A stretch of DNA of 51,483 nucleotides, from NCBI GenBank assembly GCA_048882385.1, contig JBHLRQ010000011.1, positions 1 to 51,483 of the forward strand. The letters are read 5' to 3'. Within the stretch, counting starts at the first letter, position 1. Every line of letters starts with the position of its first letter. The position numbers were made by a program, and so were the translations under genes. Below the pieces are notes generated by a model, which saw only the letters and a program-made list of their open reading frames with translations, was not told the origin of the DNA and ran no database searches. The stretch comes from Candidatus Thorarchaeota archaeon (lineage in GTDB: Archaea; Asgardarchaeota; Thorarchaeia; Thorarchaeales; Thorarchaeaceae). Positions 26,413 to 32,568 of the stretch are shown here, piece by piece.

Positions 26413-27582
26413 TCACCTGGAAGTACTAATCTTCTTAATCCGTTGCTCAAGCTCCAGTAATCTTTTCGTTAGTATTTCGATTCTATCAATATTTTCAGCA
26501 AGTCGGGTTTGTAATGCATCAAGGCTGCCTTTTTCGACAGTAGATGAACCTGATGTTGTATCGAATTTTGACTCTAAAACATCTAAACGTTTTTCAAAAT
26601 CAGAAAGACTCAATTTATCCAATCGACTTCTTAGAGATTCAAGACTCCTTTTCACATCATCTGAACTAAGCTCTTCTCTAGTAGATGCTGCCTTTTTTGG
26701 TTCTTGACTAACTCTAGCTTCTAGAACAACCTCTCTCATCTTTTTTGGTGGTCGAAAACTATCTCCAGGCACCATCCAGATTGGGACAAGATATTTTCTG
26801 GAGATCTCTTCAAGACCAACACCCGTGATACTCGCAAATGCGGCTATTCTTTGTGGCGAATCCCAGAAGCACACATCGATAATACCATCCTTAACAAAGA
26901 CACAAGCCACAATAGCAGATCGTATTCCTCTAAATAATTCAAGACCAGTAATCCATCGAGTAAGGAGAGCAGAGAAAATTGGGAGGTCTTTTGATGAGCC
27001 ATGGCGAATCAGGAGATCCTCAGAAGATCCTTCTTGAACAATAGCCTTGATCCACTCAGTCATTTTGGTACTCGCCTTTGGCAATGATAGCACTAAGACA
27101 TCATTCACAAGTTTCTCGTTCGTATCCATCCTCAACTGTTCTACATAATCGAGATTAGGCTCAACAAAACTCTTTGATACGTTCTTTCCAAGCCCATACT
27201 CAAGAAGAAATCGAATGATTTCAAGAGGTGATTGATTCTGAACTTGGAATGCAATGATAGACTGTGAATTCTTTTTTCCCAAGACCATAGCTACAAACTT
27301 GCTTTCAGTGAGACCCTTAGGACCTATTACAAGAATATTTGCAGCTCCGGGCGAACTCATATCTCTGACTAGTCTTGCAAACCTGTCTGCAGGTATAACT
27401 AGTGATTCTTGATTGTGTTTGTCACGAAGTTTTCCTTTCATACCCATTGAAAGAATACCTTGCTCAATCCATCCAGTCTTCATTGAATCTTCAGGAAGTT
27501 TGGAATAGATATATCCAGAAACTTCACCACTGTGATAAAGGGCTTGAAGTCTGGTCGATAGATCTTTACTAATCGATATCAC
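26413..27582 (-). CDS. Hypothetical protein, alpha/beta N-terminal region plus C-terminal coiled coil
   Basis: 389-aa ORF overlapping the upstream gene end; heptads in the last ~85 aa. Confidence 0.8.
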   Translation of the reverse strand: MISISKDLSTRLQALYHSGEVSGYIYSKLPEDSMKTGWIEQGILSMGMKGKLRDKHNQESLVIPADRFARLVRDMSSPGAANILVIGPKGLTESKFVAMVLGKKNSQSIIAFQVQNQSPLEIIRFLLEYGLGKNVSKSFVEPNLDYVEQLRMDTNEKLVNDVLVLSLPKASTKMTEWIKAIVQEGSSEDLLIRHGSSKDLPIFSALLTRWITGLELFRGIRSAIVACVFVKDGIIDVCFWDSPQRIAAFASITGVGLEEISRKYLVPIWMVPGDSFRPPKKMREVVLEARVSQEPKKAASTREELSSDDVKRSLESLRSRLDKLSLSDFEKRLDVLESKFDTTSGSSTVEKGSLDALQTRLAENIDRIEILTKRLLELEQRIKKISTSR

Positions 27583-28705
27583 CTCTCAAGATAAGACGTC
27601 TATCAATCGTATCAATAATTTCATCCAACTTCCTAATGTTATCAATATGAACAAATGCTCCAACACCCTCTTTGGCGATTGCTTCCATAATATCAATTTC
27701 AGATTTTATACCCATTGAAAACGCAAAAATCATCACCTTTGAATTCCCGCCATGGATTCTAGAAATCTTAACAGGATTTTGACCAGCAGTATATATCCCG
27801 CTTGAAAACAATAAGATTGCTGTTGGAAGATTGTTAGATTCAGATAGTGATTGAGCAATTATCAGACTTTCTTTCAAAGCTTCCCCAGGATTAGAGGGCA
27901 GATTCAAATTATCTTCAGAAATTTTTTTCACCCACTCTCTATATGCTCCTATAAGGGATGATGAATGGATGGATGTTCTCTCTACTTCTACTCCAGTTTC
28001 AGAATCAAAAGTCTTGAAATGAAATACTGTATCAGAAAATGCCATTCCAGCAAAGAGAACTTTCTTTCCAATACTCGTAAATTGTGCTTCAATTTTCTGG
28101 AGCGAAGATAAGATAGCTTCGTGACGAGAGATTTTTTGATCACCGGATAAGACATCAACAATCTGAGTTGCCGCGGCAGTTTCAACGATTATGCAGAGAT
28201 TATAGGGTTCAGAATCGCTGGGAGCAAGGCGGATCTTTAGGAGTTGGTTCCAAGATATTCTCGCACTTTTTGTAGAGGATTCAGTAGGTGTCATCGATAG
28301 GACACAAAGACTAAGTCCCAGTTTTGGTATGAACAAGTCTTGCCCTTCTTGCAATATTAGACCATCGATGAACTCCTGAAAATCATCAATCCGCTTTGAC
28401 ATTGCATGTGCCACTTTCTGGTTATCGAGGTCTCTTTTAGAGGTTACAGCTAGACGTATCTCATTACAAACTGGTATTTCATGCTGAACCAGCTCAAGTG
28501 TTATTCTGCAACCTTCATCTATTTCAAGAAGTTCTGATAGCCTTGAGTCAATTATGATTGTTCCAGTGGGAACTTTTTCTGAGGGGCGTATATCAGAAAT
28601 TGCTACTTTCCCATTGAATTCCATCTTGAAGATTCCTGAATCAGTATCTGTTGAAACAAAACAGAGCCCCTTTTGATCACGCCCTCTTAGCGCTCTTAGG
28701 TTCAA
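27569..28705 (-). CDS. CDC48-N-like + degenerate vWA protein (third paralogue)
   Basis: GTIIIDSRL..LEIDEGC, IDGLILQEG, LSMTP; YNLCIIVETAAATQIVDV (MIDAS lost), SRHEAIL, SNPGEAL, LFSSG, FAFSMG, IAKEGVG; TTG at 28705 (or CTG at 28708) after GGAGG. Confidence 0.75.
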   Translation of the reverse strand: MNLRALRGRDQKGLCFVSTDTDSGIFKMEFNGKVAISDIRPSEKVPTGTIIIDSRLSELLEIDEGCRITLELVQHEIPVCNEIRLAVTSKRDLDNQKVAHAMSKRIDDFQEFIDGLILQEGQDLFIPKLGLSLCVLSMTPTESSTKSARISWNQLLKIRLAPSDSEPYNLCIIVETAAATQIVDVLSGDQKISRHEAILSSLQKIEAQFTSIGKKVLFAGMAFSDTVFHFKTFDSETGVEVERTSIHSSSLIGAYREWVKKISEDNLNLPSNPGEALKESLIIAQSLSESNNLPTAILLFSSGIYTAGQNPVKISRIHGGNSKVMIFAFSMGIKSEIDIMEAIAKEGVGAFVHIDNIRKLDEIIDTIDRRLILRGDID

Positions 28706-28718
28706 CAGGCAACCTCCT

Positions 28719-29861
28719 TCAATGAATTCGAGTATTGTAGATTTGTGTTGCAACCGAGCGTGATCCATAAAAGACCTCTACTCGCAAGTTTGCTTTCCCC
28801 TTTGTATCAGTCATTGGGATGAAGCTAAGTTCTAGTTTGCGATCAGAATTTGGACTTATTTGATGATGTTCATTCGTAACCTCAGAAACTCCATCTGAGG
28901 TGACTAGTGACGCAATGACTCTAATTCCAACAACTGCGGCACTAGGATTCTTTACTCGTATATAGTAGTTGAATGCTTTACCAGCCACAATGTTGTTGGG
29001 TATCTCTCCCAAGTTTACAATCAAGTCTAACTGAGAGGTCGACAAAGGTTTCCCCTTGGGCCAACGAGATATTCTTCCGAGTTCTAGGAGACGCGAGAGT
29101 GATGTCTTCAATTCCCTCAATTCTAGCGATAGCTTTGAAGCAGCATCACCCAAGTCAAAGACTCCGTCATTCGCTTCGTAGTATGAGAGCACCTTTCTGT
29201 CAGCTTCGATGAGATCACTAACTCCTTCTAGTATCTGCATTATTGCCTCTGGAAGCTCATGTGCTTCCAACAATGAGTAGTACTTGCCTTCCTCAACAGC
29301 AGAGGCTATTTTCCTGAATGAATCTTCAACAAGGGGATTGCAACCACAAACAAATACAAACATCGTACTTCCATACTCTTTGCGAAATTGCTGAACTTCA
29401 GCTATGGGGTCATGACCTTTTGGACATCCTTCAGGAAAATAGTCATCGCTAATGCTATTGTAATTGCGACCATGTGGCGGAGCATCACCCACTAACAAGA
29501 GTACCTTGTAGGAATCTCGTTCCCATGACAGCTTTGTACGTGCATCGAATAGCCCATCAGCAACAGCCTCCGGAGTATCGCCACCTTCAGAAGGGTTTAG
29601 CGACGATATGAGTTTGTGAACGCTTTTGATCTTTGGTGAGAAATCAAAGACTTTGGTTACATACGATCGATCTTGAGGAGGATGATCACGATAGGACACA
29701 ATTCCAAACCGAATCTCAAGACTTTCTGTTTTACGCGATATATGGTCAACAATTTCAAAGAGACTATTCCTGACTGCTTGGATATCATCCTTCATTGAAC
29801 CAGTTGTATCTACAACAAATGCTACGTCTAGTTTGGTGGAGGCCAGCCTAATCCACTCCAA
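28719..29861 (-). CDS. vWA domain (intact MIDAS, vwkA-like subtype) + winged helix + Ig-like domain
   Basis: LDVAFVVDTTGSM, YRDHPPQD, GGDTPEAVADGL, GDAPPHG, FPEGCP; wHTH DLGDAASKLSLELRELKTSLSRLLELGRI; beta-rich tail; start may be CTG at 29846. Confidence 0.88.
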   Translation of the reverse strand: MEWIRLASTKLDVAFVVDTTGSMKDDIQAVRNSLFEIVDHISRKTESLEIRFGIVSYRDHPPQDRSYVTKVFDFSPKIKSVHKLISSLNPSEGGDTPEAVADGLFDARTKLSWERDSYKVLLLVGDAPPHGRNYNSISDDYFPEGCPKGHDPIAEVQQFRKEYGSTMFVFVCGCNPLVEDSFRKIASAVEEGKYYSLLEAHELPEAIMQILEGVSDLIEADRKVLSYYEANDGVFDLGDAASKLSLELRELKTSLSRLLELGRISRWPKGKPLSTSQLDLIVNLGEIPNNIVAGKAFNYYIRVKNPSAAVVGIRVIASLVTSDGVSEVTNEHHQISPNSDRKLELSFIPMTDTKGKANLRVEVFYGSRSVATQIYNTRIH

Positions 29862-29944: not shown

Positions 29945-30334
29945 ATGGGCGAAGTGAGTGATACAGACCTTTTACTTGAGTTCATTTTTGAAGGAGGTCT
30001 TATTCTCAAAGGCATTATTAACAGAATCCATGCTCCACTGATAGTTGAAGAGATAAAATCTAGACTTCCATTCGAAGGTCGGACTGCATTGATGGGTGGA
30101 GAAATGAAGATTACATTGGGGATATCAAAAGGAAATGCAAAGCCAACAAAAGATGTCAAGAAAGCTGACATAGCATACCAACCACTTGGCGACTCCTTGG
30201 ATATCTATCTTAACGATACTAGTACTTTTAGTCAAGTGAACATACTTGGCAGAATAACCTCAGATGACGAAGAACTTGGAAAATTGGCTAATGTAAGAAG
30301 AGGTAGTCTAGTGACTATCAGGATGGTAAGCTGA
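29945..30334 (+). CDS. Cyclophilin-like fold protein (DUF369/TM1367-type)
   Basis: APLIVEEIKSRLPF, ADIAYQPLGDSLDIY, SQVNILGRI. Confidence 0.75.
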   Translation: MGEVSDTDLLLEFIFEGGLILKGIINRIHAPLIVEEIKSRLPFEGRTALMGGEMKITLGISKGNAKPTKDVKKADIAYQPLGDSLDIYLNDTSTFSQVNILGRITSDDEELGKLANVRRGSLVTIRMVS

Positions 30335-30353: not shown

Positions 30354-30896
30354 TTACAGATTCTTTATGATTGCTTCCTGCTCATCGACTTTCTTTTCTT
30401 CGGGATCTACGACCATGCCGGGTTCATGTGTTTCAATCAAGACCTCAATTCCAGAATGTTCGACACGTTTTACTCCATTGCTTGATAGTGCACGAACACG
30501 CAGCTGAGTGGTGTTGAATTCTGTCTTGTCAGATGTTTCAACAGCTTGTGTTTCTCGACGGAGCTTGGTCTTGGAAATCCGAACTTGCTCTTTTAGTTCG
30601 GCAACCTGTACTTGGAGTTTTTTACGTTCTGAACTCTCTTGATCAAGCTGCGTCTTTAATTCGTCATGCGTGACACGAGTAACATAATCCTTGGTCTTGT
30701 CAACCCATGTAACAATAGTACCATCAAATTTCCGTGTAGTTGTGACCTGGCCTAGTGCTCTAAGAACTGCAATAACATCATAGACCCTTCTTTTTGGAGT
30801 GTTCAGAGTTTCAGCTAGAATATCACTTCTGATTCCAACCTCCCCACACTCCCTTAGAACCCTAACTGACTCTTTAGCCAGATCTACTAGCTTCAA
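30354..30896 (-). CDS. E2F/DP-family-like winged-helix DNA-binding protein with coiled coil
   Basis: LAETLNTPKRRVYDVIAVLRALG...VTWVD matches the E2F/DP recognition helix (RRxYD..vL..lG...W); followed by heptad coiled coil. Confidence 0.8.
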   Translation of the reverse strand: MKLVDLAKESVRVLRECGEVGIRSDILAETLNTPKRRVYDVIAVLRALGQVTTTRKFDGTIVTWVDKTKDYVTRVTHDELKTQLDQESSERKKLQVQVAELKEQVRISKTKLRRETQAVETSDKTEFNTTQLRVRALSSNGVKRVEHSGIEVLIETHEPGMVVDPEEKKVDEQEAIIKNL

Positions 30897-31236
30897 CTAT
30901 GCACCCCACTGAAATCCGGCGGCTTGCTCAAAAGAGCACACTTCCATCATATTTATCGTGCCCCGTATATATGGGTTTGTAATTTCCATATTATACGCGT
31001 CCGTCCCGATTTATCGAACGTATTACTGACATACTACATTTTAAGGAATCTAGTAAAATCGCCCGAGTATCTTTCGAAAAATGAAAATCAGCATTATTCG
31101 TCACAGTCTCCGATAATTCGTAGCGGATATTGAAGAAATAGTCCCTACACATCCTTATGACTAGACCAGACATTTTTTAACGTGGAAGAAAAGTCGAGGC
31201 TTTAAATCCGCCCTGTATTTTGGAGTGGAGATATCG

Positions 31237-32568
31237 ATGAGTAAGAAAAAAGTAATAATCATGGGAGCAGCTGGTCGCGATTTCCATAATTTCAACACGT
31301 ATTTCCGCGACAATGAAGACTATGAGGTTGTTGCATTCACAGCCGAACAGATTCCAGGAATCGGTGACAGAATGTACCCACCAGAGCTCTCGGGCCCACT
31401 CTATCCGAAGGGAATCAAAATCTATCCGGAAGAAAAATTGCCCGAACTCATCAAAGAATTTGAAGTTGAACAATGCATTCTTGCATATTCTGATCTTCCA
31501 TACGAGGTGGTTGGTAATAAGATTGCTTGGGTAAATAGCTTAGGTCCAGATCTTCGCCTGATGGGTCCAGATCTAACAATGATAAAGAGTTCCAAGCCAG
31601 TTGTTGCAATCTGCGCGGTCAGAACAGGTTGTGGTAAGAGTCAGACATCAAGACGTGTTAATCAGATTCTCGTTGATATGGGATTAAAGCCGGTCAATAT
31701 CAGACATCCGATGCCATATGACCCAGATCTAACTACCCAGATTGCACAGAGGTACGAGAAGCTTGAGGATTTGGACATGTATCGTTGTACAATTGAAGAA
31801 AGAGAAGAGTATGAGCCTATGATAAACATGGGTGTCATCCTTTATGCAGGAGTTGACTATGGCAAGATTCTCGAGCAAGCTGAAAAAGAAGCAGATGTCA
31901 TTACATGGGATGGAGGAAACAACGACTTTCCATTTTACAAGCCAGACCTTTTAATCGTCATTACGGATCCTCATCGTCCTGGCCATGAAATCTCATACTA
32001 CCCTGGTGAAACTAATCTCAGGATGGCAGATGTCGTGGTGATCAACAAGATTGACACTGCAGATTATGATGATGTAGAAGAGGTCAGAGAGAACATTATG
32101 TTTACAAATAGCAGGGCAATGATTGTGGATGCTGCATCTCCACTCACTATCGAGAACATGGAAATGATCAGAGGTAAGCGAGTCATAGTTGTTGAAGATG
32201 GTCCAACTGTTACGCACGGTGACATGCCATATGGTGCAGGCTACATTGCAGCAAGAAAAGCTGGTGCAATAATTGTCGACCCACGACCATTCGCAGTTGG
32301 AAGTATCAAAGTCACTTTTGAGAAGTATCCACATCTCGAAGATGTCTTACCTGCAATGGGCTATGGTAAGAAACAGATGGATGAGCTTCAGCAGACAATA
32401 AACAAGTCAGATGTGGAGGCAATTGTCATTGGTACTCCCATTGACCTTAATCGAGTTGTAAAGATTGACAAACCAAATGTCAGAGTCAAGTATGACCTTC
32501 AAGAAATTGGCAGACCCAATCTTGAAGACGTTTTGAAGGAGTTTGTCAAAAAACATAATCTGAAGTAG
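31237..32568 (+). CDS. COG2403-type P-loop protein (cyclic 2,3-diphosphoglycerate synthetase-like; arginine synthetase ArcE-like)
   Basis: MGAAGRDFHNFN, AVRTGCGKSQ, RHPMPY, TIEEREEYEP, WDGGNND, VEDGPTVTHG, LPAMGY. Confidence 0.85.
   Translation: MSKKKVIIMGAAGRDFHNFNTYFRDNEDYEVVAFTAEQIPGIGDRMYPPELSGPLYPKGIKIYPEEKLPELIKEFEVEQCILAYSDLPYEVVGNKIAWVNSLGPDLRLMGPDLTMIKSSKPVVAICAVRTGCGKSQTSRRVNQILVDMGLKPVNIRHPMPYDPDLTTQIAQRYEKLEDLDMYRCTIEEREEYEPMINMGVILYAGVDYGKILEQAEKEADVITWDGGNNDFPFYKPDLLIVITDPHRPGHEISYYPGETNLRMADVVVINKIDTADYDDVEEVRENIMFTNSRAMIVDAASPLTIENMEMIRGKRVIVVEDGPTVTHGDMPYGAGYIAARKAGAIIVDPRPFAVGSIKVTFEKYPHLEDVLPAMGYGKKQMDELQQTINKSDVEAIVIGTPIDLNRVVKIDKPNVRVKYDLQEIGRPNLEDVLKEFVKKHNLK

Follow-up and report, generated by a model that had tools for sequence, protein, structure and literature searches.

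Does a small reading frame in a Thorarchaeota contig encode a transcription factor of the E2F/DP family and, if so, which genes might such a protein control? The window analysed here is the whole of a 51,483-nucleotide (nt) stretch from a Candidatus Thorarchaeota archaeon of the family Thorarchaeaceae (assembly GCA_048882385.1, contig JBHLRQ010000011.1, positions 1 to 51,483 of the forward strand), and the frame in question encodes an E2F-like protein of 180 amino acids. E2F drives S-phase entry in eukaryotes, and the origin of E2F is part of the question of eukaryogenesis. We think it probable, with some reserve, that the protein is a homodimer of an Asgard E2F/DP family that binds TTTSGCGC-type sites and controls DNA-synthesis genes in Thorarchaeaceae. 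This reading draws on an E2F/DP-type DNA-binding domain, a predicted parallel dimer, and sites conserved upstream of the genes for thymidylate synthase (thyA) and the MCM helicase. The gene and the parts of its product are as follows, with model confidence given as the predicted local distance difference test (pLDDT).

30354..30896, minus strand: gene for the E2F-like protein, 180 amino acids, from the list of open reading frames (ORFs) and its translation; TTG start at 30896–30894, TAA stop at 30354–30356
30705..30896, minus strand: E2F/DP-type winged-helix DNA-binding domain, residues 1–64 (PF02319, hhalign; model pLDDT 84–91)
30777..30791, minus strand: RRVYD recognition-helix motif, residues 36–40, with invariant R36, R37, Y39 and D40
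30552..30677, minus strand: long helix, residues 74–115, predicted to form a parallel in-register zipper (model pLDDT 87–97)
30357..30530, minus strand: tail, residues 123–180, modelled as strands 131–136, 142–147, 152–156 and 161–166 plus a short C-terminal helix

Sequence evidence for an E2F/DP-type winged helix

The original prediction had placed the frame at exactly 30354–30896 without naming its strand, which is minus, and the strings quoted there (KLVDLAKESVRVL, LAETLNTPKRRVYDVIAVLRALGQV, VTWVD and ELKTQLDQ...VAELKEQVRI) are all found in the ORF. Databases hold 196 homologues that are conserved over the full length, and every one of the 120 listed, the best 120 of the 196, carries PF02319. 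The nearest of these proteins share 62–92% identity with the E2F-like protein, and their source names are mostly those of hypothetical proteins from Thorarchaeota, Promethearchaeota or Asgard metagenome-assembled genomes. By these comparisons the gene is real, its conservation and Pfam match exceeding chance.

The N-terminal domain had been called E2F/DP-type, with a comparison of the E2F_TDP (PF02319) and TrmB (PF01978) profiles proposed as a check. The protein scores 30.7 bits against PF02319 (cut-off 25.7, E 2.6e-07, residues 11–56), whereas TrmB stays below its curated cut-off at 14.8 bits versus 25.6. A six-frame search of the genome with PF02319 returns the E2F-like gene at 32.1 bits, and this is the only match over the cut-off in its own genome; the 14 control genomes have none.

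Searches with a profile built from 31 orthologues (A1) agree with the single-sequence result. Among PDB sequences at E≤10 the profile has five matches, namely E2F8 (4yo2, 9.9e-06), E2F4 (1cf7, 0.03), two engineered proteins and one coiled coil, with no TrmB or MarR protein among them. Against 1.84 billion representative proteins it yields 49 matches at E≤1e-3, of which 37 were scanned; PF02319 lies above its cut-off in all 37, and none of the 37 is a TrmB/MarR-type protein. E2F_TDP is the top Pfam match in 36 of the scanned relatives, and in P0165, a eukaryote-type E2F, E2F_CC-MB scores slightly higher. E2F_CC-MB is additionally present in 5 of the 37, one of which has relatives named E2F3, E2FA, E2F5 and similar in eukaryotes, and E2F_TDP matches in two stretches each in P0164, P0168 and P0170. 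Those scanned matches that are not of the Asgard type are E2Fs; they carry either E2F_CC-MB or a second DNA-binding domain.

Aligned by hhalign, the Asgard winged helix matches the eukaryotic E2F winged helix at 98.2% (E 3.4e-14). Across sets of 20 and 68 Asgard sequences, R36, R37, Y39, D40 and the wing tryptophan W64 never vary, and the Asgard RRxYD and Trp line up with the RRxYD and Trp that are likewise constant among 38 eukaryotic E2Fs. In eukaryotic E2F/DP it is RRxYD that recognises the CGCG core. As judged from sequence, the winged helix at the N-terminus belongs to the E2F/DP type rather than to that of TrmB, which upholds the earlier assignment.

A predicted homodimer with an unassigned tail

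Complex prediction for two copies of the protein gave a score of 0.49 (median of three runs) versus 0.00 for the best of three controls. Among proteins of solved structure, 20 of the 30 pairs attain that mark, as against 1 of the 23 single chains. The dimer runs share at least 94% of their contacts, with a partner pLDDT of at least 79. The contacts of lowest error are in register along the long helix (77–77, 80–80, 84–84, 87–87, 91–91, 94–94, 98–98, 101–101 and 105–105), and further predicted contacts involve winged-helix residues 2–11 and 40–50 as well as tail residues 123–166 of both chains.

The gene content is consistent with a protein that pairs with itself. Each of the 69 Thorarchaeaceae genomes with a PF02319 match has exactly one copy; the genome studied here has a single PF02319 gene and no second paralogue, and the Pfam DP family (PF08781) has no match in the E2F-like protein. 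The homodimer put forward earlier is thus predicted by the model and supported by single-copy status. Two copies would pair in parallel through a leucine-zipper-like helix, the beta tail and contacts between the winged helices, and the homodimer would take the place of the eukaryotic E2F–DP heterodimer.

Two PF02319 matches occur in each of nine Asgard genomes outside Thorarchaeota (G044, G048, G053, G058, G061, G148, G181, G235 and G250); these may be pairs of paralogues that could form heterodimers in the manner of E2F and DP. Short relatives of 113–137 amino acids without the zipper also exist, such as P0159 and P0162.

The original prediction further proposed the E2F domain order, in which the DNA-binding domain is followed by a coiled-coil and marked-box region. 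The order does resemble that of E2F, whereas the identification of the tail as a marked box is not supported. PF16421 (E2F_CC-MB) is not among the Pfam families listed at E≤10 for the protein. A full-length hhalign comparison of the Asgard family with eukaryotic E2F is collinear over 164 columns (98.3%, E 1.8e-14), and we rejected this alignment as evidence for a marked box because, once split by region, only the winged helix carries the signal. The coiled coils align with each other at E 2.8e-4 (probability 41%), and the tail aligns with the marked box at E 0.16 over 9 columns. Assignment of the beta tail to the E2F marked box is therefore not supported by sequence, with no detectable similarity between the two.

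The AlphaFold2 model of the tail reaches a pLDDT of 76–87 with a 68-sequence alignment and stays below 50 with 31 sequences. A search of the ESM Atlas with residues 70–180 returned no usable match, and NCBIfam has nothing above its cut-off for the protein. The chain stops at residue 180, 14 residues past the last strand, so the protein would have no Rb-binding or activation C-terminus, as had been stated.

Candidate target sites at thyA and MCM

The word TTTSGCGC is enriched between genes in the genome studied here: 21 of its 82 sites are intergenic (26%), whereas 60 permuted motifs average 9.5%. Genes preceded by these intergenic sites include thyA (a TIGR03283 match), a TFB gene, CTP synthase and others, and among selected replication genes whose upstream regions were inspected, MCM has a site at −84.

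The sites at thyA and MCM recur across Thorarchaeaceae. Of 30 thyA loci, 17 have a strict TTTSGCGC in the 200 nt before the gene (16 of the 29 with full 200-nt windows), and 15 of 30 MCM loci have one upstream of MCM. The remainder of the MCM loci has 2 sites in 101,706 nt, and the background of the strict site is 11 in 467,782 nt. When 200 permuted motifs were scored in the same way, only two, which match the same sites, come near these counts; the others reach at most 2 windows for thyA and 5 for MCM. The extended consensus of the sites is TTTSGCGCS(A/G)WW, a near-palindromic sequence that the dimer would bind.

Given this conservation in Thorarchaeaceae, the protein would control DNA-synthesis genes, with thymidylate synthase and MCM as its candidate targets. 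The sites sit upstream of putative TATA boxes, and for this reason our guess is an activator-type role.

Two observations concern the regions around such sites. In the thyA loci (L154–L183), the estimated thyA start codon is immediately preceded by a conserved CTAGAATA(A/G)G box. If this box is, as it may be, the real TATA box and the transcript is leaderless, the annotation sets the thyA start too far upstream. In the genome studied here, a TFIIB (TFB) gene (C58, 7800–8765) has TTTCGCGCC 68–76 nt upstream and a gene for a Ras-family small GTPase (C6, 29613–30200) has TTTGGCGC 26 nt upstream.

The promoter and neighbours of the E2F-like gene

The region that precedes the E2F-like gene, and the gene that converges on it, contain the following features.

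30903..30908, minus strand: GGGGTG, a Shine-Dalgarno-like box 6–12 nt before the TTG start
30965..30980, minus strand: ACAAACCCATATATAC, a promoter-like sequence with a TFB-recognition element (BRE)/TATA-type box, about 70–85 nt upstream of the start; its promoter role is putative
31007..31018, minus strand: TTCGATAAATCG box (TTCGAWAAATCG-type), directly upstream of the promoter of the E2F-like gene
29945..30334, plus strand: gene for a cyclophilin-like protein (PF04126) of 129 amino acids, 43.9 bits versus a cut-off of 27; convergent, with 19 nt between the two stop codons

At the same 'KLV' position the orthologues, too, begin with TTG or GTG, and GGGGTG (or GAGGTG) stands before that codon in most of 34 Thorarchaeota orthologue upstream regions, as judged by eye; the TTG start therefore looks real. 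A ACAAAnnnTTAAATA-type box is kept at the same position in orthologues. The box farther upstream follows the pattern TCG-NN-AA-NN-CG, which is present in the same orientation between −86 and −128 in 24 of 34 Thorarchaeota upstream regions; the strict pattern has 17 sites in the genome studied here, 11 of them outside long ORFs. RNAalifold, applied to 28 orthologous leaders in search of a hairpin in the 5′ untranslated region, gave no consensus pairs. Three loci labelled Baldrarchaeota and Odinarchaeota (L125, L126 and L129) have TTGGCGCC upstream of their own E2F-like gene, at about −131 from the start, and the Thorarchaeota loci have none.

In 74 of 80 related loci the cyclophilin-like gene adjoins the E2F-like gene, mostly in convergent arrangement; Asgard archaea outside Thorarchaeota account for 15 of the 80 loci and 12 of the 74. 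Of 301 Asgard genomes, 215 have PF04126, some of them from families without the E2F-like gene; we therefore rejected co-occurrence as a specific link, adjacency alone being specific. PF02319 itself exceeds its cut-off in 123 of the 301 sampled Asgard genomes and in 68 of 76 from the family studied here, and in none of several other Asgard families (for example 0 of 68, 0 of 28 and 0 of 21). The related loci that bear names are mostly from Thorarchaeota, and also from Hermod-, Hel-, Baldr-, Odin-, Hod-, Sif- and Borrarchaeota. One further locus (L123) is a 15-kb contig in a bacterial bin (Candidatus Deferrimicrobium) that holds an Asgard-type pair of E2F-like and cyclophilin-like genes; this contig has probably been placed in the wrong bin.

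Other neighbours are also conserved. The divergent gene at 31225–32568 (plus strand) encodes a very conserved protein of 447 amino acids, 77–95% identical across Thorarchaeota loci and present in 61 of 80 loci, which has a weak cobW/GTPase Pfam match and no NCBIfam match. Three consecutive genes at 26413–29861 (minus strand), one encoding a VWA-domain protein and two whose products have no Pfam match, keep their order beside the cyclophilin-like gene in most Thorarchaeota loci. NCBIfam has nothing above its cut-off for five of six neighbours.

Evidence against direct control and alternative explanations

Several results weigh against the proposal that the E2F-like protein reads the TTTSGCGC sites. 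The link between site and gene does not follow the E2F-like gene across Asgard archaea: a strict site precedes MCM in 0 of 16 genomes outside Thorarchaeota that have the gene and in 0 of 21 that do not, so the MCM test is non-discriminating. Outside Thorarchaeota, PF00303 (thyA) has a match in 4 of 32 genomes, and none of those four loci carries the strict site. A genome that is 91% complete (G093) retains the thyA site, and the E2F-like gene was not found there. In the genome studied here, sites are absent before the two Cdc6 genes, RNR, PCNA and the E2F-like gene. In front of the E2F-like gene itself, no strict site occurs in 65 Thorarchaeota loci and no relaxed one in 60 upstream windows, counts on which we rejected autoregulation through E2F sites. 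We likewise rejected CTP synthase as a target, its site being present in 1 of 30 loci (the genome studied here only), and reused it as a control. Because the results for CTP synthase, for Cdc6, RNR, PCNA and the own gene, and for genomes outside Thorarchaeota run against it, binding of the sites by the E2F-like protein is something that we infer, and another factor could read them. The protein itself raises two further points: the Asn (N39) that all 38 eukaryotic E2Fs share, three residues after RRxYD, aligns to A43, an Ala nearly invariant in the Asgard family, just as the original prediction had remarked, and the success of the dimer prediction may reflect likeness to solved E2F–DP structures. 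None of 22 RNA runs was found to hold the stretch.

Three other explanations can be set beside a site-reading E2F-type homodimer. The one with most in its favour, which we still regard as unlikely, is that the winged helix is truly E2F-type and the TTTSGCGC sites belong to another factor. The protein would then regulate something else, for example through the TTCGAWAAATCG box or together with its cyclophilin-like neighbour, and the beta tail might be a sensor or partner-binding module as in BusR-like regulators. Such an account would explain why the own promoter lacks an E2F-type site while a different box is kept in 24 of 34 orthologues, and it suits the steady adjacency of the cyclophilin-like gene and the absence of MCM sites from other Asgard genomes that have the E2F-like gene. 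It draws also on Foldseek, which pairs the whole model with BusR chains over 206–213 columns at a probability of 0.84–0.92, although those same alignments have a root-mean-square deviation (rmsd) of 17–18 Å and E values of about 0.01. Its appeal to the neighbour is weakened in that PF04126 is common too in Asgard families without the E2F-like gene. The RRxYD motif is invariant, and what is kept before thyA and MCM, in the lineage in which the protein is nearly universal, is the very word known from textbooks for E2F.

A second account denies the E2F label altogether: the protein would be an ordinary archaeal regulator of the TrmB, MarR or ArsR kind, its RRxYD-like helix a product of convergence or of shared clan ancestry, and the label an over-reading of a short hidden Markov model match. 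Indeed, Foldseek comparisons of two models with the PDB and other PDB-based fold searches list only generic winged helices, with Zalpha, ArsR, MarR and RbkR first and without any E2F chain; the single-sequence Pfam match covers residues 11–56 only; some relatives are annotated as TrmB or riboflavin-kinase regulators; and two distant relatives exceed the TrmB cut-off as well (P0139 at 26.7 bits, P0162 at 27.5 bits). The protein in question falls below that cut-off, however, and E2F_TDP tops the Pfam results in nearly all scanned relatives. The 1.84-billion-protein search gave eukaryotic E2Fs and no TrmB/MarR type among the 37 of 49 scanned, E2F8 and E2F4 are the best natural proteins among the PDB sequence matches, and the winged helix alone aligns to that of eukaryotic E2F at the E value given above. 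We regard this account as very improbable. Still less credence goes to the idea of a non-regulator, a ScpB-like or Zalpha-like protein that would use its winged helix and zipper to bind chromatin or nucleic-acid structures or to act in segregation. The ScpB-like and Zalpha-like matches reflect the common winged-helix fold only, the sequence signal is E2F-specific, and no SMC or ScpA gene adjoins in the window.

Relation to known families

Whether this family had already been catalogued in Asgard archaea was left open in the original prediction, and it has been. The supplementary tables of eukaryotic signature proteins of Eme et al. 2023 (Nature 618:992, PMC10307638), in the portion available to us, contain 151 occurrences of 'E2F/DP PF02319' and an entry 'E2F/DP homolog, arCOG02749'; Thorarchaeota orthologues of the present protein are among them, with one protein sequence given for each 'E2F/DP PF02319' row. 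The term 'E2F' is absent from the main text of that paper, and a 2024 review (PMC7617429) mentions, in the part available, E2F homologues in some Asgard genomes. In the same portion of the tables, the Asgard E2F/DP homologues belong to the same orthologous family as our protein, and the Thorarchaeota proteins begin MKLVDLAKESVRVLRECGE..., have TTG starts and fall in the same length class. The family is already known, and the gene described here is one more Thorarchaeota copy with no family-level difference.

The protein shares with typical eukaryotic E2Fs (E2F1–6; PF02319 plus PF16421) a homologous winged helix, RRxYD and the wing Trp, as well as the order of DNA-binding domain, helix and beta-rich region, in which the helices align weakly. 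Unlike them, it has an Ala for the conserved Asn and a tail that is not detectably a marked box; a DP partner gene was not found in its genome, and a homodimer is predicted. E2F1–5 have a C-terminal transactivation and Rb-binding region that the Asgard protein lacks. Of the atypical E2F7 and E2F8, E2F8 is its best PDB sequence match, and like these two it would need no DP partner. They carry two tandem winged helices per chain, however, whereas the Asgard chain has one and would gain the second through the predicted zipper dimer.

Among prokaryotic regulators, TrmB proteins (PF01978) are likewise archaeal and likewise join a winged helix to a dimerising helix. They differ in that the score of the E2F-like protein against their profile falls short of its cut-off, and none turned up among the scanned matches of the profile searches. 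BusR (7b5y, 7wjg and 7oz3), which combines a winged helix, a coiled coil and RCK_C, has a similar layout. Given the rmsd and E values above, and with no sequence relation found, this likeness would be an analogy of layout only.

Implications for E2F origins

Asgard E2F-like genes are in print as a catalogue entry, whereas the function of such proteins is not, and our literature search found no paper that joins E2F with Asgard and thymidylate, or E2F with Promethearchaeota. The present analysis adds the prediction of a homodimer, the conservation of a neighbouring gene and, at thyA and MCM, E2F-type sites that can be put to the test. The most specific form of our proposal, that a homodimeric E2F-type factor in Thorarchaeaceae directly reads the TTTSGCGC sites that precede thyA and MCM, is put forward tentatively, as possible rather than probable. 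If it is true, an archaeal lineage had E2F wired to DNA-precursor and replication-helicase genes before or alongside eukaryotes, a homodimer taking the role of E2F–DP. Binding of the sites by the protein would thus establish a link between E2F and DNA synthesis outside eukaryotes; if the protein does not bind them, the DNA-binding fold alone would have been inherited.
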